From Verrucomicrobiota bacterium (lineage in GTDB: Bacteria > Verrucomicrobiota > Kiritimatiellia > UBA8416 > JBHORK01), in NCBI GenBank assembly GCA_042565725.1, contig JBHORK010000006.1:1374-65373 (forward strand): DNA of 64,000 nt, written 5' to 3'. Every line of letters starts with the position of its first letter. Positions within the stretch are counted from its first letter, which is position 1. Made by a program: the position numbers and the translations under genes. Below, in pieces: positions 2,408 through 15,562 of the stretch. The notes under the pieces were generated by a model. It was not told where the DNA came from. It did no database searches and worked only from the letters and a program-made list of their open reading frames with translations.

Positions 2408-4864
2408 ATGAGTCGTTGTTTATTCTTATGCCGCGTCTTTCTCTCTGTATTCATCTTTTCCTTTTTATACTGTTTACCTCTATGCGCCATCGAAAAAGCG
2501 GAATGCGGCTTCGGCAATATGGTAACCTACGGAAAATGGTTTCCCGTCCGTGTCAATTCGCCTGATAAGATTCAACAGCTCAAGGTCGAGGTAATGAAGC
2601 CTTACTATTATTATGGAGACAACCCGAAAAAAAACAACGTGCAGGCCATTTACCGGGCAGCACCAGGAAAAAATCGGGTCTCATGCAGGATTACGGATGA
2701 TAATTGTCCTGTTATATGCAAATGGACTACTGCTGATGGATTGGAACATTCATGCTTTCTTCGACCGTTAATTAATAATGATGCTAATTTTATTCTTGTC
2801 GTCAGCGACCAGCCGCAGGCATTTGATTTTCTATCGGGAATACGTATCGACGACTATATTGAGTGCCGATGGGCCGAAGCCACGGCAAATAACTTTCCGG
2901 AACACTGGAGGGATCTGGAAGGAATTGACGCCATTATCCTGGATGGCGCAACAAAAAAAATATTCTCACCTGCGCAGAAAACAGCGTTTAAACACTGGCT
3001 TGCGGCGGGAGGCACAGTCTATATCACTCCCAACGCGTTAAAGATGGGCGCTAAAGGCACATGGGACCTGTATCCGGGCGTAACCGTCGCCCCAAAGTCA
3101 ACACCCGTAACAGTGCCGTCACTGCAGAATCTGATACCCAAATTCTCCGACTACCTGAAAAAAGTGCCCAGCGTAGACCTGCATGTGCCCCCTCTTGAAA
3201 GAGTAATCTATAGTCCAAAAGACACACTGATCGGGGCACGCGATACGGGTAACGGGCGGGTTGTGGTTCTGGGCATGGACTTGAACGAACTCAAAATTGA
3301 CGAAAGAATTGTGTTCGAAGGACTACGCAAGGAACTGTGGACCAAACTGCTGGTACTGATACGTCCGGAAACATCGGATTTACTTCGCAACAACCTTATC
3401 ATACCTCAAGAAGCTAAAGCACGATACCTTGCGTGGCACATCATCATTTTTCTCGCAGCTTACGTAATAGCGCTGGGCCTTGTAAACTGGCTGGTCCTTC
3501 GTGGATTTAAACGCTTTGAATACAGTATTATTACATTGCCGATAGGCGCCTTATTATTCGCGGTTATCGCTTTCGGAACAGGCCTCAAGCTGAGAGGAAA
3601 CAAAACAATAATCAATGAAGTCAAGCTGACACTGAGCCAGAATTCCGGCATAGCCTACGCTTACGAAACTACTGGTATTTTATCTCCTGACCGAAAGCCG
3701 TTCACATTCAGCACAGACCCCTTTTCTCTGATCAATGTGGCCGAAGGGCGCCAGAGAAACAGGTACGGGCATAATAGATACGGAAACACGAAGCCCTTGG
3801 AAGAATATAAGTTTGGGGAGACCACGGATATTAAAGACGTCAAAGTAGGCACATGGACCATGGCGTTTCTCAACACGAAAAGCACCGACAACCTCGGCAA
3901 AGGTCTTGAGATCAGCACAGCCTTCAGCGGGAGCAATCTGGTTGGAAAAATAAAAGGCTCGCTTCCATTCGTCCTCAAAGATGCCCACATAATTTACAGA
4001 TGGCACAGGCAATGCCTGGGCGATCTCGGCCCGGAAGTTGACATTGAATTTTCTATGCCGCTGATAGCTGAAACGGATCTCAAAAGTACCCGCTGCCCCA
4101 ATTGCGGCGGCTTTCACCATGGCGGCTGGTTTTCAGAAGAGTTTGCAGAAAAATACCCGTTATCGGAAAGCCTGCGCGAAATCCTGAATGAGACTTCCGG
4201 CAGGGCACGACCTGAAGAACCTTTTTTAGCAGGCCATCCTGTGCAGACAAACCGGCTGATTGGTGTTAACCGGACAGAAACCATAGAATCTCAAAAGCAA
4301 ATCTGCGTTTTCCCTTCACAACTCAGCACGCGGGGACCTGACTTGGCCATTCCTTACGGAATCATTTCCGAACGAGATCTCGAGTATGAAGAAATGAATT
4401 CATTCGAATATGTGAATGACATCAATTACCAGTATATGCCGGAAATTCTCAAAAAACTCGGATTGGACAAGAAAGACGACACAAACACAAGAATGGACTA
4501 TCATTTTCAAACAACGCGCGAGCGCCTGATCATTTACAGGCTCCCGACAAGCACAACCCAATGGGATCCAACACATATCGGTTTTCTATGGATATTCGAT
4601 GAAGACGACTACGAGGAAAAAGAAAACCCGGCGCCTTTCCCCAAATTGCTCACCTATGATTGGGAAAAAGGAAACTGGCAGGAAATACATACCGCTCACA
4701 ATGGAACCAATGAAGTTACCCTTGCCAATCCAGAACAATTTATTAGCGAAACATCCGGCACCCTTGCGGTAAAGCTTAAAACCGAAAACATCGAGAACCC
4801 TAACCAATACAGAAGCGGTGCTTTACACATGACATGGCACGCTAGAGAATCAAAGGAAAAATGA
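2408..4864 (+). CDS. Large membrane-anchored hypothetical protein (818 aa), first gene of the ABC-2 transporter operon
   Basis: Has an N-terminal hydrophobic signal or anchor, two central TM helices (AWHIIIFLAAYVIALGLVNWLVL; ITLPIGALLFAVIAFG) and a CPNCGG motif. It lies 4 nt upstream of the ABC ATPase. I recognise no family. Confidence 0.7.
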   Translation: MSRCLFLCRVFLSVFIFSFLYCLPLCAIEKAECGFGNMVTYGKWFPVRVNSPDKIQQLKVEVMKPYYYYGDNPKKNNVQAIYRAAPGKNRVSCRITDDNCPVICKWTTADGLEHSCFLRPLINNDANFILVVSDQPQAFDFLSGIRIDDYIECRWAEATANNFPEHWRDLEGIDAIILDGATKKIFSPAQKTAFKHWLAAGGTVYITPNALKMGAKGTWDLYPGVTVAPKSTPVTVPSLQNLIPKFSDYLKKVPSVDLHVPPLERVIYSPKDTLIGARDTGNGRVVVLGMDLNELKIDERIVFEGLRKELWTKLLVLIRPETSDLLRNNLIIPQEAKARYLAWHIIIFLAAYVIALGLVNWLVLRGFKRFEYSIITLPIGALLFAVIAFGTGLKLRGNKTIINEVKLTLSQNSGIAYAYETTGILSPDRKPFTFSTDPFSLINVAEGRQRNRYGHNRYGNTKPLEEYKFGETTDIKDVKVGTWTMAFLNTKSTDNLGKGLEISTAFSGSNLVGKIKGSLPFVLKDAHIIYRWHRQCLGDLGPEVDIEFSMPLIAETDLKSTRCPNCGGFHHGGWFSEEFAEKYPLSESLREILNETSGRARPEEPFLAGHPVQTNRLIGVNRTETIESQKQICVFPSQLSTRGPDLAIPYGIISERDLEYEEMNSFEYVNDINYQYMPEILKKLGLDKKDDTNTRMDYHFQTTRERLIIYRLPTSTTQWDPTHIGFLWIFDEDDYEEKENPAPFPKLLTYDWEKGNWQEIHTAHNGTNEVTLANPEQFISETSGTLAVKLKTENIENPNQYRSGALHMTWHARESKEK

Positions 4865-8551: not shown

Positions 8552-9376
8552 TTACGGCATCGTATATAAACCTGTCAGAACAAACTTTGTCAGCGAAGCC
8601 CCGCTGACATCCCCTTTGCCGATAGCCATAAGCTGTTTGTCGATAAATTCTTCAATTTTCTGCATCTTTTTACCTTGTTTTACTTCTGTTTTTGAGCTCA
8701 AGCGAATTTTTCTGCCCTTCTCATCTACAAGCCATAACCCTTGCTTATCTTTTGTGACTGTACCAAATATAATTTTAAGGGCCTTCTGGGCTTCTTTCTC
8801 GTCCACTCTCTTAACACTTGAGATCATGAACTTTCCTATATTATCCTTGCTGAGATCCACCCCTCCGCCTGTAGCTATAACTCTCGCGCCGGCCATATCC
8901 CGCAGCTTTACGCCTTCTTCTCCGGATTTCACACGATTCGTTAAATATACCTTTCTGCCCAAATCATCTACCAGGCATAAGTATGTATCGCCGTGTGTAA
9001 CCGAAACAAAAAGCCTGCCTTCCAAAGTTGTTGCGCCACCCTCTCCCTCTCCTGCTTTACTCAGGCCTGTTACAGTGAATCCTTTTAAAGACTTATCGGT
9101 ACTTGTCCCCCTGCCCGTGGCTACAACCTTCTCACCAAGAAAATCTTCCGTATTTACAGCATTTTTACCAAATCCTATCTTTCGTGGCAAACTAACTTTC
9201 CTGCCCTTATCATCCACCAGCCAGAACGAAGCACCTTCTTTTTTAACTGTGCCCTCTACAGTTGGCGACCCTTTTTTTGTCTTTTTCTTCTGTGTCTTAG
9301 AGTTTGCAGCCACAGCTCCGGCCACTAATGAAAATACAAATCCTGCAATCAATAGATTTAACAACAAACGTTTCAT
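8552..9376 (-). CDS. Secreted lysine-rich repeat protein, paralog 1 (three ~75-aa modules)
   Basis: Signal peptide MKRLLLNLLIAGFVFSLVAGAVA with the RBS AAGGAGGAG upstream. Module pattern is EGTVKKxGxxFWLVDDKGRKVxL...AVNTEDFLGxxVxATGxG. Paralogs lie at 26297-26998 and 28130-28726. Confidence 0.85.
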   Translation of the reverse strand: MKRLLLNLLIAGFVFSLVAGAVAANSKTQKKKTKKGSPTVEGTVKKEGASFWLVDDKGRKVSLPRKIGFGKNAVNTEDFLGEKVVATGRGTSTDKSLKGFTVTGLSKAGEGEGGATTLEGRLFVSVTHGDTYLCLVDDLGRKVYLTNRVKSGEEGVKLRDMAGARVIATGGGVDLSKDNIGKFMISSVKRVDEKEAQKALKIIFGTVTKDKQGLWLVDEKGRKIRLSSKTEVKQGKKMQKIEEFIDKQLMAIGKGDVSGASLTKFVLTGLYTMP

Positions 9377-9475
9377 GGAACTCCTCCTTTTAATGTATCC
9401 ATATCAATAATCCTATATATGATATCTTATCTGTTTTTCTTTTAAAAGAGAGTTTTTATCTTCGGGAGTGATTTA

Positions 9476-9504
9476 TTGACAACTGCGCATTTCCGTGATA
9501 TTTG
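9476..9504 (+). promoter_or_regulatory. Possible sigma-70 promoter for the tRNA-like array
   Basis: TTGACA at 9476-9481. The -10 is weak (GATATT or TATTTG at 15-17 nt spacing). About 85 nt upstream of the first tRNA-like unit. Confidence 0.3.
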
Positions 9505-9587
9505 AGAGCTTTCTAAACTGATCCAACTTCGCTAACGGACAAATGTTTAGGATTTAGAAATTAGAATTTAGAATTTTCTTAATGATA

Positions 9588-9960
9588 GGGGTATAGCTTC
9601 CCGCTTCGCAGAACAGGCAGTTGGTCACAATTTTATGGGGGTATAGCTCACCCCGACGTCTGCGCGCCGGGATGGCAAGCAGTTGGTAGAGACGAAGTTC
9701 CCGTACTTGTTTCGGGACGTCCCGATGTCTGCGCATCGGGAAGGCCAGGGGTCTAACATTATTGTCGAACTCCTGGTGTAACTTTAAAAATAAACTATGG
9801 GGGTATAGCTCACCCCGACGTCTGCGCGCCGGGATGGCAAGCAGTTGGTAGAGACGAAGTTCCCGTACTTGTTTCGGGACGTCCCGATGTCTGCGCATCG
9901 GGAAGGCCAGGGGTCTAACATTATTGTCGAACTCCTGGTGTAACTTTAAAAATAAACTAT
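9588..9960 (+). repeat. tRNA-Ala-like pseudo-units: one partial copy (9588-9636) plus two identical 162-bp tandem units (9637-9798, 9799-9960), in register with the true tRNA
   Basis: Each unit starts GGGGGTATAGCTCA, which equals tRNA positions 1-14, and also carries AGTTGGTAGAG and AGGCCAGG. These tRNA blocks are interrupted by hairpin inserts, and the acceptor 3' strand is lost. Confidence 0.85.
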
Positions 9961-10033
9961 GGGGGTATAGCTCAGTTGGTAGAGCGTCTGAATGGCATTC
10001 AGAAGGCCAGGAGTTCGAATCTCCTTACCTCCA
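9961..10033 (+). tRNA. tRNA-Ala (anticodon GGC)
   Basis: Hand-folded 73-nt cloverleaf: acceptor GGGGGTA/TACCTCC with the G3:U70 Ala identity pair, D arm GCTC-AGTTGGTA-GAGC, anticodon arm TCTGA-ATGGCAT-TCAGA, T arm AGGAG-TTCGAAT-CTCCT, discriminator A. No encoded CCA. Confidence 0.9.
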
Positions 10034-10053
10034 CTTCACGGAGTAACCCAAAC

Positions 10054-10323
10054 ATCCTGTATTATACATACATTCTTCAAAGCATATCAACAGGCAGATT
10101 TTATGTAGGTTCATGTAACCACCTGATCGAACGTTTCCATGAACACCAGAGCAATTACAGCAAAGCAACACGCGGTCGCGGGCCATGGTGGATGCCATAT
10201 TTTGAGACTTACCCTACCCGTTCGGACGCTCAAAAACGTGAGTATGAAATCAAGAGCAAGAAGAGCAGCCGCTATATACGAACTATTATCTGGAAAGCCT
10301 TTCCTCTATTAGAATTAATGTAG
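10054..10323 (+). CDS. Stand-alone GIY-YIG nuclease-domain protein (~89 aa), cassette copy 1; start codon uncertain
   Basis: YYTYILQSISTGRFYVGSCNHLIERFHEHQSN...RGPWWMPYFETY...AQKREYEIKSKK fits the GIY-YIG (YhbQ/Slx1-like) core. There is no ATG, GTG or TTG between the tRNA and the domain. The tracked TTG start at 9976 lies inside the tRNA. Confidence 0.65.
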   Translation: MLYYTYILQSISTGRFYVGSCNHLIERFHEHQSNYSKATRGRGPWWMPYFETYPTRSDAQKREYEIKSKKSSRYIRTIIWKAFPLLELM

Positions 10324-10399
10324 AGCGGTCCGATGCGAAGACATCGGACAGGCCAGGAGTTCGAATCTCCTTACCTCCACTTCACGGAGTAACCCAAAC

Positions 10400-10669
10400 A
10401 TCCTGTATTATACATACATTCTTCAAAGCATATCAACAGGCAGATTTTATGTAGGTTCATGTAACCACCTGATCGAACGTTTCCATGAACACCAGAGCAA
10501 TTACAGCAAAGCAACACGCGGTCGCGGGCCATGGTGGATGCCATATTTTGAGACTTACCCTACCCGTTCGGACGCTCAAAAACGTGAGTATGAAATCAAG
10601 AGCAAGAAGAGCAGCCGCTATATACGAACTATTATCTGGAAAACCTTTCCTCTATTAGAATTAATGTAG
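10400..10669 (+). CDS. Stand-alone GIY-YIG nuclease-domain protein, cassette copy 2 (A to T substitution near the C-terminus); start codon uncertain
   Basis: Lies 346 bp downstream of copy 1 and has the same reading frame relative to the unit. It is missing from the ORF track because it has no canonical start. Confidence 0.6.
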   Translation: MLYYTYILQSISTGRFYVGSCNHLIERFHEHQSNYSKATRGRGPWWMPYFETYPTRSDAQKREYEIKSKKSSRYIRTIIWKTFPLLELM

Positions 10670-10726
10670 AGCGGTCCGATGCGAAGACATCGGACAGGCC
10701 AGGAGTTCGAATCTCCTTACCTCCAC

Positions 10727-10782
10727 CAATTTGCCCGTAAGGGCAAATTGCCCTCCGTAGCCTTGTGCGGAGCAGGGCTTTT
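10727..10782 (+). terminator. Two consecutive hairpins after the ancestral tRNA 3' end, the second followed by TTTT
   Basis: CAATTTGCCC-GTAA-GGGCAAATTG (10727-10750), then GCCCTCCG...CGGAGCAGGGC followed by TTTT (10750-10782). Confidence 0.5.
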
Positions 10783-10906
10783 CCGGTATATACCGGGCAC
10801 ATCCGGGGCAACACTATTAACGGGGGCAACCCCAAAATCACGAACACATAATTCGCACCCTAAGTCTATAGTTCTCAAAACGCGCCACACTCTCTCTATT
10901 GTTGTC

Positions 10907-10935
10907 TTGAAATACTGCCTCTGTTCATATATAAT
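10907..10935 (+). promoter_or_regulatory. Sigma-70-type promoter upstream of the CotH gene
   Basis: TTGAAA (10907-10912), a 17-nt spacer, then TATAAT (10930-10935), about 100 nt upstream of the GTG start. Confidence 0.5.
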
Positions 10936-11035
10936 TTATTTTGTGTGTCAAGAGTTGTTAGCAGTTGGTTTCGGGCTATGTGAGTATAAGGGTAAAAATC
11001 AATTCTTATAACTCCTATCCTCTGAAAGGAGAATA

Positions 11036-14000
11036 GTGAAGAAGTCATTATTCATATTTCTTGCGCTGTCTGTTGTCTGCTGTATGTCTGCTGCCGCTGA
11101 TCTCTACATTTCTGAGTTTATGGCGGTCAATGATGTTACTCTCCAGGATGAAGATAGCGATTATCCGGATTGGATCGAGATCTATAATGATGGGCCGACA
11201 GCTGTGGATCTTTATGGATACGCGATAACAGACGACATAGCAGATCCGCGAAAGTGGATCTTCCCCGCCACTAATCTGGCATCGGAAGGCTACCTGGTGG
11301 TCTTCGCTTCAAACAAGGATCGTGACACCTCCGGTTCAGAGCTGCACGCCAATTTCAAGCTGACCGGCGCTGGTGAATACCTGGCGCTAGTGGATCCCTC
11401 TAATAACGTTTTGCATGCCTATGACCCAAATTATCCCGAACAGTCCGCGGATATTTCCTATGGTATAGATCCCACGAACAAGACTTCGTACTATTTCATG
11501 GATACCCCCACACCCGGTGCTTTAAATAATATGACATCTTTATCGGCGGGATCTGTCTTCTTCTCGCTTTCATCGCAAATGTTTACAACCAACACATTAC
11601 TCTTGAGTCTCAGCAACGAAACTGCGGGCGCAAATATTTACTACACAACGGACGGCAGCAGGCCTTCAGACACGAATGGCAACCCCTATACCTCCGCTTT
11701 AAGTATTACAGAATCCGTTTGTGTCAAAGCCGCTGCACAGCTTGACGGTCACCCCGCCGGTTCTGTTTCCAGTGAACATTTTATTCAATTTGCTCCGGAA
11801 ATGGCCGCATTTACCTCCGGCATCCCGATACTCGTTATAGAGAACTTCAATGCCGGACCCATTCCGCAGAAAGGAATTGATAGCGAATCGGACCCATTGA
11901 CTCAAGTACCAAGACAGCCAGCAACGTTAACCGTTTTCGAACAAGCGACCAATGGTGTTACAGAGCTATCCAATTCTCCAACATTGATGTCTCGCATGGG
12001 TATTCGAGTTCGCGGCAATTCTTCAACTGCATCGTACCGTGAGCACATGCCCTATTCCGTAGAGCTTTGGAATGCCGATGATGGCGAAAGGGATGAACGT
12101 CTTCTGGGTATGCCTGAAGAATCTGACTGGATTCTCTATTGGCCCTGGCACAACGGCGGCAACCCCATCCCCTCACAATCCGTCGACACAACGCTGATGT
12201 ACAATACGTTTATTTATGAGTTGAGTAACGAAATCGATCGCTATGCCGCTCGTACACGCCACGTGGAAATGTTCGTGAACACAAATGGCGGACCTGTTAC
12301 CGCCAGCGACTATGTGGGGATTTATGTTCTCATGGAGAAAGTCAAACGTGACAAGAATCGGATTGATTTCGATGCACTGTCCGACGATGGCACCACGGGT
12401 GGGTGGTTGCTGGGGATTGGAACAGAGGATCCAATTTCGGAATTCGGTGAGCTACCTCAGAATTTTCGCACGGCGGGTCCTGACCGTACTCTTGAAACTT
12501 CCGATGATATTCCTCCGACCAATGGTATATACCTGAATTTTGATTCACCGAGCGGGTACCTGATCAACACAAACCAACGCGCCAGTATTGAGGACTGGTT
12601 TGTCACATTTGAAGATGCTCTTTACGGAACGAATTATACCGATCCCGATGTTGGCTATGCAAAGTATCTCGATTCATCGAACTTCATTGACTATTTCCTA
12701 TTGCACGATCTTACGGGCAATTTTCCGGATGGCTTGTTTATTAGCATGTGGGTCTGGAAAGATTCGCCCACTGGTAAACTCAAGATGGGGCCCGTCTGGG
12801 ACTATGATTGGGCTTATGGCATGGGAGGCTATCCTCCTACCATGTATCTTCGAGGGAATGCTCATAATCTGTGGTATGGCCGTTTGTGGACAGACCCTGA
12901 TTTCTGGCAAGCTTATGTTGATCGTTGGCACGAACTACGGCAAGACCGCTTCTCTGACACTAATATGATGGCGATTATTGACCGCCAGACAGTTCAGATC
13001 ACAGAGGAGGCTGCTCTGCGCAACGGAACCACAAACTGGGTATCCGCTATTGCAGGCTGGAAATCATGGATCATAGGACGGGGCGTTGCTATAGATGGCC
13101 TCTTTGAAATCGCACCATCCATGACGCCTCAGAACGTCTTTGTGACACCGGGCGATCTGGTACAACTCTCCGCGCCATCAACACCTATCTATTATACGAC
13201 CAACGGTGAGGACCCTCGTTCTTCCGGCGGCGGTCTTTCTCCTCACGCCATTGCATATACTGAGCCCGGCATCACCATTACGGATGATACTCGCATAATA
13301 GCCCGTGTTTTGAATGCCGGAAACTGGAGCGCACCGACCGAGGGGGTCTTCTTGACCGGCACTCAAATAGTGGCTGTTTCGGAGATCATGTATCATGCGC
13401 GCCAACCTGTCGGTATAGAAACAAATGGCGGCTTTGGCCGATCTGATTTTGACTATATCGAAATCCAGAACACAAGCGCTGAAACTCAATCTCTTCTGGG
13501 TCTGTCTTTTTCTGATGGTATTACATTTGATTTCACAAGAGGGCGTGTGACAACGCTGCCGCCGCAAGCCTGCGCAGTGGTAGTCGAGAACTTCGATGCA
13601 TTCACCAATCGCTACCCGAATGTTCCCACCAATGCTATCGCCGGGATCTATGATGGGGATCTTGATGATAGTGGTGAGCGTATTCGACTGACCTCTCTCA
13701 TTAGCGGAGAGATGTCAGACTTTACTTATAATGATACATGGTCCTGGCCGCTGGCTGCGGATGGCGCCGGTCATTCGCTGATTCCTCTGATCGTGACCAA
13801 TCAGACCAACGGTTATCTCAATTATCACGGCGCCTGGCGCCAGAGCACATATCTGGATGGTTCGCCGGGAACAGCAGATCCTGCGCCGCTGCGCTCTGTG
13901 GTTTTGAATGAGATCATGGCGCATACGGACTATTCCGATGGCCCGGCGTGGCAGGATTCTGATGATTGGATTGAGCTGTATAACACGACCAACCATGATG

Positions 14001-15562
14001 TCTCACTCTCAGAATGGTATTTGAGCGATGATATGACCAATCTCCAACAATGGGCCATTCCCGCAACAGCCGTGATTACAGCCAGGCAATGGATGACGTT
14101 CTCAGAGGTGAACGATTTCCACACAAATCAATATGACGGGTTCGGAATCAATAAGGCTGGAGAACAGATCTTTCTCTCCCATTTCCCTGCGGGAACAAAT
14201 GCACGTGTTGTTGATGCCATTCGGTTCAAAGGTCAGGAAAACGACCGTTCTTATGGTCGATATCCAGACGGGGACATGACCTGGTCTGCCCTTATCCCGA
14301 CAAGAAATGCCATGAACCTGTTATTTGAAGATGCACTGCTGATTAAGGAGATTATGTATTACCCCGCTCCTACTGATGAATTCGATAGTGATCGTAAGTT
14401 CATTGAACTGTTGAATATTTCCGGCCAGGCAATTGATCTTTGGAATTCAACCGGTCCCTGGCGGCTGAATGGCGGCGTTGAATATGTCTTTCCATCCAAC
14501 ACCACATTAGCCGCAGGTGAACGATTGCTCGTGCTGCCTTTTGACCCCACGAACAGCATTGCCTTACAACTGTTTCTGGATACCTACCATTTCACAGATC
14601 TGGCCTGTACGGTCGCAGGACCCTACAATGGTGAACTCTCCAATCTTTCCGACCGCCTCACTGTCGAACGGCCGCTGGCTCCGGATATGCCCGGCGATTA
14701 TGCGTCATGGGTGGTAGTTGACGAGGTCATATACTTTGATCGCAGCCCCTGGCCGGACGGGGCAGACGGAACAGGCCGTTCGATTCGACGCATCAACAAC
14801 GGACATGGAAACACCGCCGCTAACTGGAGAACCACTCTTGTCCCGTCTCCCGGCATTCCGCAGCCGGCAGTGGCCATTACTGAACCTGCTTATGGTTTAG
14901 CGATAGAAAAAGGGGAGAACTTATCGGCAATCGCAGAGGTGGAACCGGATCTGGTTAATGGGGCTGTTCAGCAGATCACATTCTATGCCAATGACTCTGT
15001 TATTAGTGTTTCTACTGCAAGCCCTTATCTGGCTTCTCTTTCGTCGCTCAACTCAGGTGTTTATAACTATCAGTTAACAGCCGTGCTTCAGGATGACCTG
15101 CACGTTACCACCTCATTACCGGTTGTCGTTACTTATGGCTCCCTCACAAACAGCACACGTGACGCTGATGCTGACGGCCTTCCTGACTTCTGGGAAGAGT
15201 CATTCTTTCTTGGCACAAATGTTTCCGCCGGCACTAACGATTCGGATGGTGATGGGTTTGTGGATTATGGTGAATATATTGCAGGTACGGATCCCACGAA
15301 TCCTGCCAGTTATTTTGTCCTGGACCTGGGCCAAATAAACACAGAATACTACTTCCGGTTTAAGACCATTACAATCAATGGCATGGGATATGGTGACTAT
15401 CTGAGATACTATGATCTCTTCTCGTCGACAAATCTGCTGGATGGTTCATGGCAGACAGTTTCGAACTGGACAAATTTACCTGCACATGATGATTTCTATA
15501 CATTTACAAACAGAATGCTTCGGCCGGCTGAATTCTTCCGTGTACGAACACGATTGGAGTAA
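11036..15562 (+). CDS. Secreted CotH kinase-family protein with multiple lamin-tail (LTD) domains, Fn3-associated modules and C-terminal thrombospondin-type-3 Ca-binding repeats (1508 aa)
   Basis: Signal peptide present. LTD signatures (ISEFMA.ND...DWIELYN) recur about four times. CotH core: IRVRGNSS, YSVELW, LHDLTGNFPDG, GPVWDYDWAYG. Also IYYTTDGS/IYYTTNGEDP modules and DADADGLPD...NDSDGDGFVD repeats. Confidence 0.85.
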   Translation: MKKSLFIFLALSVVCCMSAAADLYISEFMAVNDVTLQDEDSDYPDWIEIYNDGPTAVDLYGYAITDDIADPRKWIFPATNLASEGYLVVFASNKDRDTSGSELHANFKLTGAGEYLALVDPSNNVLHAYDPNYPEQSADISYGIDPTNKTSYYFMDTPTPGALNNMTSLSAGSVFFSLSSQMFTTNTLLLSLSNETAGANIYYTTDGSRPSDTNGNPYTSALSITESVCVKAAAQLDGHPAGSVSSEHFIQFAPEMAAFTSGIPILVIENFNAGPIPQKGIDSESDPLTQVPRQPATLTVFEQATNGVTELSNSPTLMSRMGIRVRGNSSTASYREHMPYSVELWNADDGERDERLLGMPEESDWILYWPWHNGGNPIPSQSVDTTLMYNTFIYELSNEIDRYAARTRHVEMFVNTNGGPVTASDYVGIYVLMEKVKRDKNRIDFDALSDDGTTGGWLLGIGTEDPISEFGELPQNFRTAGPDRTLETSDDIPPTNGIYLNFDSPSGYLINTNQRASIEDWFVTFEDALYGTNYTDPDVGYAKYLDSSNFIDYFLLHDLTGNFPDGLFISMWVWKDSPTGKLKMGPVWDYDWAYGMGGYPPTMYLRGNAHNLWYGRLWTDPDFWQAYVDRWHELRQDRFSDTNMMAIIDRQTVQITEEAALRNGTTNWVSAIAGWKSWIIGRGVAIDGLFEIAPSMTPQNVFVTPGDLVQLSAPSTPIYYTTNGEDPRSSGGGLSPHAIAYTEPGITITDDTRIIARVLNAGNWSAPTEGVFLTGTQIVAVSEIMYHARQPVGIETNGGFGRSDFDYIEIQNTSAETQSLLGLSFSDGITFDFTRGRVTTLPPQACAVVVENFDAFTNRYPNVPTNAIAGIYDGDLDDSGERIRLTSLISGEMSDFTYNDTWSWPLAADGAGHSLIPLIVTNQTNGYLNYHGAWRQSTYLDGSPGTADPAPLRSVVLNEIMAHTDYSDGPAWQDSDDWIELYNTTNHDVSLSEWYLSDDMTNLQQWAIPATAVITARQWMTFSEVNDFHTNQYDGFGINKAGEQIFLSHFPAGTNARVVDAIRFKGQENDRSYGRYPDGDMTWSALIPTRNAMNLLFEDALLIKEIMYYPAPTDEFDSDRKFIELLNISGQAIDLWNSTGPWRLNGGVEYVFPSNTTLAAGERLLVLPFDPTNSIALQLFLDTYHFTDLACTVAGPYNGELSNLSDRLTVERPLAPDMPGDYASWVVVDEVIYFDRSPWPDGADGTGRSIRRINNGHGNTAANWRTTLVPSPGIPQPAVAITEPAYGLAIEKGENLSAIAEVEPDLVNGAVQQITFYANDSVISVSTASPYLASLSSLNSGVYNYQLTAVLQDDLHVTTSLPVVVTYGSLTNSTRDADADGLPDFWEESFFLGTNVSAGTNDSDGDGFVDYGEYIAGTDPTNPASYFVLDLGQINTEYYFRFKTITINGMGYGDYLRYYDLFSSTNLLDGSWQTVSNWTNLPAHDDFYTFTNRMLRPAEFFRVRTRLE

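Follow-up and report, generated by a model that had tools for sequence, protein, structure and literature searches.

Minimal GIY-YIG genes and a conserved hairpin embedded in pseudo-tRNA arrays at bacterial tRNA loci

Introduction

The closest described systems in which GIY-YIG endonucleases act at tRNA genes are found among the Seg-type free-standing homing endonucleases of T-even phages (PMC2330249, PMC13096335). The motif at which SegB cleaves tRNA genes, RAWTSGAAC, is the T-loop box GTTCGAATC in reverse complement, and the tandem amplification of a tRNA-plus-segB segment needs SegB catalysis together with phage recombination proteins (PMC13096335). SegB has a C-terminal region past the catalytic domain, and a C-terminally truncated variant has been described (PMC13096335). 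In prokaryotes, Slx1-like GIY-YIG domains occur fused to, or near, a TrmH-like tRNA methyltransferase and a COG4123 methyltransferase (PMC1564403), and a 2023 study of how partial tRNA genes arise names integrating elements and CRISPR only. Here we analyze a composite tRNA-Ala(GGC) locus of a Verrucomicrobiota bacterium (assembly GCA_042565725.1), which lies in a 64,000-nucleotide stretch of contig JBHORK010000006.1 that we term the window. Two tandem 346-bp units follow the tRNA gene, each with a minimal GIY-YIG open reading frame (ORF) and a partial tRNA copy in which a hairpin, H, takes the place of the anticodon arm. Profile matching places this element in a family of thousands, so that it is not unique, and the value of the finding lies mainly at the family level: these are tiny nuclease genes embedded in tRNA loci across many bacterial phyla, a large and apparently undescribed group.

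Neither tRNA-linked minimal bacterial GIY-YIG genes nor hairpin-substituted pseudo-tRNAs were found in the full-text literature, with subscription-only literature outside the scope of the search, and the initial annotation of the window, which had been made from the DNA alone and knew of no described element of this type, agrees with this. We provisionally regard the arrangement as undescribed.

Results

The tRNA-Ala(GGC) locus

Tandem Repeats Finder (TRF) gave a period of 346 bp with 2.1 copies and 99% match over positions 10004-10726, a repeat search found exact 31-nt direct repeats at 10004, 10350 and 10696, and alignment of the two complete units revealed a single difference, G10297 versus A10643, which corresponds to Ala versus Thr. 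The tandem 346-bp cassette behind tRNA-Ala(GGC) and its one distinguishing base are thus as initially annotated, and so are the period and the number of copies. The register needs a correction by 1 nt, as the units had been placed at 10005-10350 and 10351-10696 and the start of the third, partial copy at 10697, whereas this copy comprises 31 nt from 10696 on; in a tandem repeat such a shift is immaterial. What had been overlooked is the further extent of the locus in the upstream direction, where two 162-bp units occupy 9634-9957. The features of the locus are as follows.

About 9587-10785, plus strand: composite tRNA-Ala(GGC) locus
9587-9633, plus strand: degenerate tRNA-5'-like fragment (GGGGTATAGCT... 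CAGTTGGT) preceding the 162-bp units; repeat search, 76% copy at 9584-9600
9634-9795, plus strand: ORF-less pseudo-tRNA unit U1; TRF period 162, 100% match; fold z-score -2.3
9796-9957, plus strand: ORF-less pseudo-tRNA unit U2, identical to U1; TRF and repeat search
9720-9741 (U1) and 9882-9903 (U2), plus strand: H hairpin TCCCGATG-TCTGCG-CATCGGGA; inverted-repeat search
9961-10033/34, plus strand: functional tRNA-Ala(GGC) with G3:U70, C74 kept and CA not encoded; ARAGORN, and Rfam RF00005 with 71.6 bits
10004-10349, plus strand: ORF unit D1, composed of the tRNA 3' 31 nt (10004-10034), a leader with GGAG (10035-10053), the GIY-YIG ORF, GTAGAGCG and the H hairpin; TRF, repeat search and alignment
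10054-10323, plus strand: GIY-YIG ORF copy 1, 89 codons counted from ATC 10054, stop TAG at 10321-10323
10328-10349, plus strand: H hairpin GTCCGATG-CGAAGA-CATCGGAC of D1, in place of the 17-nt anticodon arm
10350-10695, plus strand: ORF unit D2, differing from D1 only by A10643 instead of G10297; alignment
10400-10669, plus strand: GIY-YIG ORF copy 2, residue 82 Thr instead of Ala
10674-10695, plus strand: H hairpin GTCCGATG-CGAAGA-CATCGGAC of D2
10696-10728, plus strand: third copy of the tRNA 3' 31 nt (10696-10726), then CA, which gives an intact ...ACCTCCACCA end
10728-10785, plus strand: two hairpins, AATTTGCCC-GTAA-GGGCAAATT and GCCCTCCG...CAGGGC, then TTTT; read by eye

In each 346-bp unit, a leader of about 20 nt that contains GGAG separates the tRNA end from the ORF. 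The segment GTAGAGCG (10320-10327 and 10666-10673) is identical to the 3' strand of the tRNA D-stem and supplies the TAG stop, so that the initial reading of a D-stem copy with the stop codon, followed by a 22-nt hairpin at the place of the anticodon arm, holds. The same is true for the tRNA ends: the functional tRNA ends in ...CCAC followed directly by TTCACGG and lacks an encoded CCA, and CCACCA is present only in the last copy, where the hairpins follow. This third 31-nt copy with its CA marks the ancestral 3' junction with CCA and terminator flank, and the hairpins at 10728-10785 are likely the terminator of the whole tRNA/ORF transcription unit. A promoter and terminator scan found nothing above shuffle expectation on the plus strand and did not flag these hairpins. 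By eye, a TTGACA box (9476-9481) with a 17-nt spacer and TATTTG is seen at 9476-9504, 5' of the first pseudo-tRNA fragment, where the consensus scan was silent; these boxes may serve as promoter for the entire array.

The 162-bp units are pseudo-copies of the same tRNA-Ala(GGC) and all lie 5' of it. Their 5' part consists of the first 14 nt of the tRNA, a hairpin inside the D loop, the 3' part of the D arm and a second hairpin, and in their 3' part H substitutes for the anticodon arm and is followed by the variable loop, by a T arm with its T loop disrupted, and by a spacer. The H stems of the 162-bp and the 346-bp units are 94% alike. The degenerate fragment at about 9587-9633 is older than these units. 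Beyond the tRNA locus, no H-type hairpin was found elsewhere in the window, and a genome-wide repeat of the repetitive extragenic palindrome (REP) type was therefore rejected for H in the window.

The family at tRNA loci

A profile search of 1.84 billion representative proteins resulted in 3,925 clusters (50% identity) at E <= 1e-10. For the analysis of gene contexts we used 80 loci, namely 79 that were kept of 341 confirmed ones (one genome per species) and the locus L080, which came from an exact-protein look-up. A tRNA gene lies on the same strand within 150 nt in 57 of the 80 loci, upstream of the ORF in 54, and 7 more loci are cut by a contig end. Homologous ORFs are thus overwhelmingly linked to tRNA genes, and often in tandem, contrary to the possibility raised with the initial annotation that relatives would never be tRNA-linked. 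Fifteen isoacceptors are occupied (Val-GAC, Ala-GGC, Pro-TGG/CGG/GGG, Gln, Asp, Phe, Asn, Leu, Thr, His, Val-TAC, Ser and Arg), and the hosts belong to Verrucomicrobiota/Kiritimatiellia/Lentisphaerota, Acidobacteriota, Ignavibacteriota, Bacteroidota, groups of the candidate phyla radiation, Omnitrophota and Gammaproteobacteria. Across the family, the ORF starts 5-40 nt past the tRNA 3' end, which leaves no room for a promoter of its own, and it is therefore presumably co-transcribed with the tRNA.

Among the loci that lack a called tRNA gene, five (L019, L035, L055, L070 and L080) nonetheless have a tRNA 3' fragment that adjoins the ORF. In the four Acidobacteriota loci among them (L019, L035, L055, L070; just upstream of position 3001), this fragment starts in the anticodon loop, and we read these starts as the probable attachment (att) scar that a different island left in this tRNA. 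In L080 (2666-3856 and 3930-3970), a tyrosine integrase gene adjoins the ORF, with its island in the tRNA that the module also occupies, and the downstream hairpin pseudo-tRNA is inverted. When a family member was compared by tblastn with plasmid and phage collections, nothing was found at E <= 1e-8.

In most loci the ORF is followed by a copy of the neighbouring tRNA, whatever its identity, from about position 10-18 to the 3' end. The copied 3' 31-33 nt are usually exact, and the anticodon arm is swapped for the conserved-stem hairpin H. The ORF reads into this tRNA copy, and the usual stop is the TAG of the D stem; the layout of the window, with the TAG of TAGAGCG as the stop and H 4 nt later, recurs identically in 29 ORF copies. 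H, which is TCCCGAC...GTCGGGA or a variant thereof, is present in 69 of the 80 loci. Its commonest stems are TCCCGAC (34), GGCCGAC (21), TCCCGAT (19), TCCCGAG (10) and TCCCGCC (9), with loops of 2-12 nt, and the arms are mostly 16-19 nt long, close to the 17 nt of a natural anticodon arm. The position of H can vary: it is found in or in place of the T loop in L015, L067 and L077, in the D arm in L066 and L034, and after the anticodon loop in L037, L047 and L038. Most pseudo-tRNAs, those of the window included, lack one acceptor strand, which makes a cloverleaf impossible. A count of G-T versus A-C mismatches in imperfect H stems, meant to tell RNA or single-strand hairpins from duplex palindromes, gave an output that was swamped by background hairpins of GC-rich flanks.

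Some hairpin-bearing sequences resemble genuine tRNAs. Two metagenomic loci (L088, 4222-4298; L098, 1431-1507) contain an apparently functional tRNA-Ala(GGC) with the H stem itself as its anticodon stem (TCCCG-ATGGCAT-CGGGA), and L088 has in addition an upstream hairpin pseudo-tRNA with the stem of the window (GTCCGATG-TA-CATCGGAC). This suggests that H was exchanged with real anticodon arms, or that H derived from such an arm. ARAGORN calls some of the hairpin-substituted copies tRNAs (L012, 362-449; L058, 1376-1443; L069, 3225-3300; and several of L081-L200), with odd assignments such as His-ATG, Phe-GAA, Cys-GCA, Thr-AGT, 'Stop-TTA' and '???', and hairpin pseudo-tRNAs are thus likely a source of spurious tRNA genes in annotations.

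Arrays are a recurrent property of the family. Two or more ORF copies are present in 15 of the 80 loci; L008 has three ORF units, the third of them truncated, and L034 has at least six, with the real tRNA past the last copy. ORF-less hairpin pseudo-tRNA units like the 162-bp units of the window are found upstream in 20 loci, for example as 4 x 89 bp in L026 and as 5 x 131 bp in L057. In L002 and L003, there are three units of 66-69 bp, in which the final 8 nt of the ORF are followed by the D-stem strand, H and the 3' part of the tRNA and by nothing else. The breakpoints vary among lineages.

We also scanned metagenomes independently of the ORF, using the DNA pattern TAGAGCG-TCCCGA...TCGGGA-AGGTC, which combines the end of the D arm, H and the variable loop. 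The pattern matches at least 120 metagenomic loci; arms of 17 nt that might be genuine anticodon arms were excluded, and the 46 loci with at least 700 nt on both sides were evaluated. Among the pattern matches listed, a tRNA gene is present on the same strand within 1.2 kb in 43 of these 46 flanked loci, the family ORF in 25, always on the H strand, and no ORF in 21. The ORF-less loci include an array of 5 x 132 bp (L165). In L083, L102, L118, L126 and L195, ORF-less hairpin units stand beside pairs of tRNA-Ile(GAT) and tRNA-Ala(TGC), an arrangement that is typical of the spacers of rRNA operons.

Selection and concerted evolution

Between close locus pairs, the ratio of nonsynonymous to synonymous substitution rates (dN/dS) is 0.06-0.26, the six ORF copies of L034 differ at synonymous sites alone, and stop codons occur in 4 of 86 ORF copies. 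These substitution patterns point clearly to purifying selection on the ORF. Over 28 nt, the mean difference between the pseudo-copies and their own tRNA is 0-0.8 nt (1.7 in the small Gln-TTG set), whereas genes for one isoacceptor differ by 2-8.5 nt from locus to locus, and the ORFs of these loci are substantially diverged. That pseudo-copies track their own tRNA provides direct evidence that recombination or conversion recurs within each locus, and the repeats thus evolve in concert with the resident tRNA. In the protein tree, one clade with 55-70% identity to the window protein is found at Ala-GGC, Pro-GGG, Pro-TGG and Pro-CGG, and the module therefore changed its tRNA host. As to genomes that differ in presence or absence of the element and are otherwise collinear, no fetched locus had the flanks of the window; the different tRNA hosts of this one clade lend such a polymorphism indirect support.

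The GIY-YIG protein

The only protein encoded in the unit had been annotated as a stand-alone GIY-YIG protein of about 89 residues with the suggestion of a profile match, and this match to PF01541 is clear (E 2.7e-13; 50.5 bits, cut-off 22.6; residues 3-73). The AlphaFold2 model (pLDDT 92.9) has a beta-beta-alpha-beta-alpha-alpha fold with strands at 3-10, 16-21 and 45-53 and helices at 24-32, 56-68 and 72-82. Foldseek matches included 1zg2 and the structure-selective nucleases Slx1 and HIGLE, which are the closest, as well as the more distant I-TevI and UvrC, and the family profile matched the PDB entries 1zg2 (UPF0213 protein BH0048; E 1.3e-13), 1ywl (1.1e-7) and Slx1 (about 1e-4). In an alignment of 33 sequences, Y6, Y17, R27, H31, R62 and E63 are invariant or nearly so, and all of them are present in the window ORF, including the catalytic Tyr pair of the GIY and YIG motifs, the Arg and the Glu. 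The window protein is thus assigned by its sequence and fold to the prokaryotic stand-alone Slx1/UPF0213 branch of the PF01541 GIY-YIG proteins, and nuclease activity is predicted.

The family proteins have 83-90 residues and no accessory domains, and they are annotated merely as 'GIY-YIG nuclease family protein' or 'putative endonuclease'. In the alignment, the tRNA-linked proteins form a distinct subfamily with motifs such as YILQS and TRGRGPW. The model TIGR01453 matches the family with 21-30 bits (cut-off 56) and in the N-terminal motif only; a Seg-type homing endonuclease was rejected by architecture on the basis of these scores and of the missing room for a DNA-binding domain. Membership in a defence system was likewise rejected, as PADLOC and PHROGs gave no match for the window ORF; for the relative P0031, the matches were weak, partial and at the motif level. 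Gene callers lengthen or shorten the ORF: P0005 and P0006 open with translated tRNA sequence, and the string VERLNGIQK..SSN in some gene calls is tRNA-Ala(GGC) read as protein. Some database proteins of 166-214 residues (P0241, P0242 and P0250) have two family-profile matches each, perhaps through fusion of tandem units or through gene calls that read across an array.

The start codon deserves attention. In 76 of 101 family copies, ATG is at the start position. In both window ORFs, the stretch that leads from the preceding stop or tRNA to the GIY motif contains no ATG, GTG or TTG. The options in copy 1 are ATC 10054, CTG 10057, which is the position of the Met in the family, and ATT 10072; the start chosen by NCBI is ATT, by which the catalytic Tyr is dropped. 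CTG, ATC or CTA occupy the start region in the window (10054-10072 and 10400-10418), L008 (about 3001-3022) and L080 (about 3986-4007), all linked to Ala-GGC. The ORFs of these three loci are intact, and their mutual synonymous sites are saturated, with a pN of 0.2-0.3, which suggests either a non-canonical start or an independent recent loss of ATG. As the window ORFs have all invariant residues but no ATG, the two copies may be silent or have only weak expression from CTG or ATC.

Neighbouring genes

When 13 flanking ORFs with 150 residues or more (about 750-21850) were scanned against Pfam, neither an integrase nor a transposase was detected, in agreement with the initial annotation. The scanned neighbours are ordinary and include a U32 peptidase, a lipoprotein-like ORF, an LTD/CotH protein and ABC transporter components. 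An integrase-mediated island or prophage was rejected on these grounds, the unit itself encoding only the GIY-YIG ORF. A group I intron or intron-encoded endonuclease was rejected as well, since Rfam yields only the tRNA in 9300-11100 and TIGR01453 remains below its cut-off. The next downstream gene (11036-15562) encodes 1508 residues that comprise four lamin-tail domains, Fn3-associated/CHB_HEX_C domains, one CotH kinase-like and one bacterial Ig domain, and we see no connection with the tRNA locus. An ORF with a TsaD-family domain (tRNA t6A pathway; 1665-2345) lies about 7.6 kb upstream, a proximity that is probably coincidental. Relatives with more than 70% identity were not found for the conserved U32 peptidase nearby, the flanking genes of the window are present in 0 of the 80 related loci, and an exact-protein look-up of the NCBI product of the window (P0001) gave no match.

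Discussion

Our data lead us to a reading to which we give about an even chance: the locus would contain a selfish module that is co-transcribed with the tRNA and that is spread and amplified by nuclease-stimulated homologous recombination. In this model, the segments of the resident tRNA on both sides of H, namely the part of the D arm and the 31-33-nt 3' part, would serve as portable homology. The nuclease would break the DNA in or beside the tRNA-like repeats, and host homologous recombination would repair these breaks, which would keep the copies identical to the resident tRNA and would expand or contract the tandem units, as in the 2 x 346-bp and 2 x 162-bp arrays of the window. Occasionally, the module would move to another tRNA gene or genome. 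No integrase would be required, selection would always keep one intact tRNA, and the module would ride on tRNA transcription without a promoter of its own.

For the cis site of the nuclease, H is the most plausible candidate and may be recognised as a hairpin or cruciform. It is the one element-specific cis feature that ORF-bearing and ORF-less units have in common, and its stem sequence is conserved across phyla while the loop length varies, which points to a recognition of the folded stem and not of two half-sites on duplex DNA. We favour H as the probable site because the structural relatives nearest to the protein, among those characterised, are enzymes that cleave branched DNA or DNA hairpins. 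The upstream pseudo-tRNAs of the family typically end in the T loop or lose it, which is at least compatible with breaks there.

Several points weigh against the selfish-module model. No pair of empty and occupied but otherwise identical loci was found, the closest organism having at most 70% identity in a neighbouring protein; no family members were found in plasmids or phages, and no vector for horizontal spread is thus evident. The copies in Acidobacteriota are nearly all at tRNA-Val(GAC), which would fit long vertical inheritance. An 83-residue catalytic domain without a DNA-binding domain leaves specific cleavage unexplained. If the target lay within the tRNA, the intact neighbouring tRNA would have no obvious immunity, and if the nuclease cut H, gap repair from the real tRNA would erase H. 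In addition, the window ORFs lack a canonical start codon, and the H arm length near the natural 17 nt could point to a constraint at the RNA level.

A more far-reaching proposal, which we regard as possible but tentative, is that the GIY-YIG protein and H together represent a new class of minimal autonomous DNA element with non-autonomous derivatives, in which H would be recognised as folded DNA. Autonomous units would have about 320-410 bp and the derivatives of H and tRNA fragments 66-160 bp, host recombination would copy the unit within and between tRNA genes by using the tRNA sequences as homology arms, and H would replace whichever arm would otherwise yield a second, possibly mis-decoding tRNA.

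The mechanism that had been suggested in the initial annotation, a 346-bp circle that integrated twice in an att-style reaction, which we spell out with the last 31 nt of the tRNA as attP and the GIY-YIG protein as recombinase, appears quite improbable to us, as nothing shows a 346-bp circle or site-specific recombination. Such a model would account for the exact 31-nt direct repeats that bound each unit, for the retention of CCA and terminator flank by the last copy only, and for the head-to-tail orientation with a geometry that recurs across the family. However, it would need a hydrolytic GIY-YIG nuclease as recombinase; GIY-YIG enzymes are hydrolytic nucleases, and we know of none that joins DNA or transfers strands. 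Beyond H, the D-arm segment likewise comes from the local tRNA, ORF-less units lie 5' of the tRNA and are joined via its 5' part, the breakpoints are lineage-variable, and a homogenisation of repeats with the resident tRNA is a signature of homologous and not of site-specific recombination. Because of this D-arm copy, the upstream arrays, the variable breakpoints and the identity to the local tRNA, homologous recombination fits better than att chemistry. The early interpretation is thus supported in part: the element is tRNA-linked, integrase-free and unusual, and the circle with its att reaction is unsupported.

Nor do we think it likely that the locus is an ordinary host operon, in which a housekeeping small nuclease is co-transcribed with the tRNA and has been passively duplicated by unequal crossing-over, being neither mobile nor selfish. 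Purifying selection on the ORF, the absence of the family from the plasmid and phage collections searched and the stable occupancy of tRNA-Val(GAC) in Acidobacteriota would all suit such an operon, as would the Slx1-like domains that are fused to or neighbour a TrmH-like tRNA methyltransferase or the COG4123 methyltransferase (PMC1564403). It does not account for the occupation of 15 or more different tRNA genes, four of them within one protein clade, for the conservation of H always alongside the ORF, for the recurrent arrays with truncated copies and stop-codon copies (4 of 86), for the ORF-less derivative arrays, or for the patchy phyletic distribution. We are equally sceptical of a system at the RNA level, in which the protein would act on the tRNA or the transcript and the pseudo-tRNA RNAs would be substrate mimics, antitoxin-like decoys or processing signals for mRNA release. 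The fusion of relatives to a TrmH-like tRNA methyltransferase (PMC1564403) would agree with it. So would an ORF that has no room for a promoter and has tRNA-like sequence on both sides, repeat arrays 5' of a nuclease gene, H arms of nearly natural length, and full-length hairpin-tRNAs of which some fold well enough for ARAGORN calls. Nevertheless, we know of no RNA-cleaving GIY-YIG enzyme that could serve as a precedent, the pseudo-tRNAs of the window and of most loci miss one acceptor strand, it is the stem sequence of H that is conserved and not pairing alone, PADLOC gave no match for the window ORF and only weak, partial ones for P0031, and an RNA mimic needs no exact 31-33-nt identity with the neighbouring tRNA. 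Finally, it is highly improbable that the tandem array arose by misassembly of a cassette with a single copy: the window is on a metagenome-assembled contig and its two units differ at one base only, but short-read assemblers usually collapse tandem repeats and do not create them, the one base does distinguish the units, a second, independent 162-bp tandem repeat exists at the same locus, and similar arrays are seen in many independent assemblies, among them L026 on a 2.17-Mb and L034 on an 828-kb contig.

If the selfish-module model is true, thousands of bacterial tRNA loci have been reshaped into pseudo-tRNA arrays by a tiny module of nuclease and hairpin, the long-uncharacterised stand-alone Slx1/UPF0213 GIY-YIG proteins obtain a first biological context, and the amplification of tRNA segments by GIY-YIG enzymes extends from phages to cellular chromosomes. 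It would also suggest a route of gene spread that relies on a nuclease and host recombination, without integrase or transposase. Should the proposed new class of autonomous elements prove right, these elements would rank with the smallest protein-coding elements of bacteria that are known to propagate themselves, and partial tRNA genes would have a third source, beside integrases and CRISPR.

Comparison with known systems

Type III toxin-antitoxin loci (ToxIN) resemble the arrays in that short, near-identical tandem repeats lie 5' of a small nuclease gene in one transcription unit. The fold of the present protein is GIY-YIG and not ToxN/AbiQ, the repeats are tRNA fragments, and PADLOC gave no match; a ToxIN-like locus was rejected by this fold and by the missing PADLOC match for the window ORF. 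With REP/BIME-RAYT systems, the ends of IS200/IS605 elements and miniature inverted-repeat transposable elements, the family shares a short conserved hairpin associated with a small nuclease gene and the many protein-less derivatives. In contrast to REP/RAYT and IS200/IS605, the protein is a GIY-YIG and not an HUH (Y1) enzyme, the hairpins are confined to tRNA loci, and the units are in tandem; an element of the IS200/IS605 or REP/RAYT type was rejected, as there is no HUH (Y1) transposase or TnpB and the only ORF is GIY-YIG.

Integrase-borne islands and prophages at tRNA 3' ends are similar in that direct repeats of the tRNA 3' end bound the insert and a functional tRNA is regenerated, and the same tRNAs are used (L080, L019, L035, L055 and L070). 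The present unit differs from them in having no integrase and 66-412 bp instead of kilobases, and it includes a D-arm segment and a hairpin, forms arrays also upstream of the tRNA, and has repeats that are homogenised with the resident tRNA. The Slx1-like/UPF0213 proteins (COG2827, YhbQ-type; 1zg2 and 1ywl) have the same minimal domain without accessory domains and are the best matches in sequence and structure; what distinguishes the family is the linkage to tRNA genes, the hairpin and the repeat array, and neither these nor any function have been reported for that group in the literature searched (PMC1564403).

The likeness to the phage enzymes consists in the GIY-YIG catalytic domain and in the location of the gene among or beside tRNA genes. 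SegB has about 220 residues and binds DNA with its C-terminal region, whereas the present proteins are a catalytic domain of 83-90 residues alone. SegB is phage-borne, and the present family is chromosomal and distributed over many bacterial phyla; its ORF starts in the tRNA 3' trailer and ends inside a tRNA copy, and it is accompanied by a conserved arm-replacing hairpin and by ORF-less derivative arrays. Like SegB, the family probably acts through recombination that a nuclease stimulates at tRNA genes. Free-standing nuclease genes at tRNA loci are a kind already known, and there is a substantial chance that the combination of the hairpin with a minimal nuclease constitutes a new class of element.

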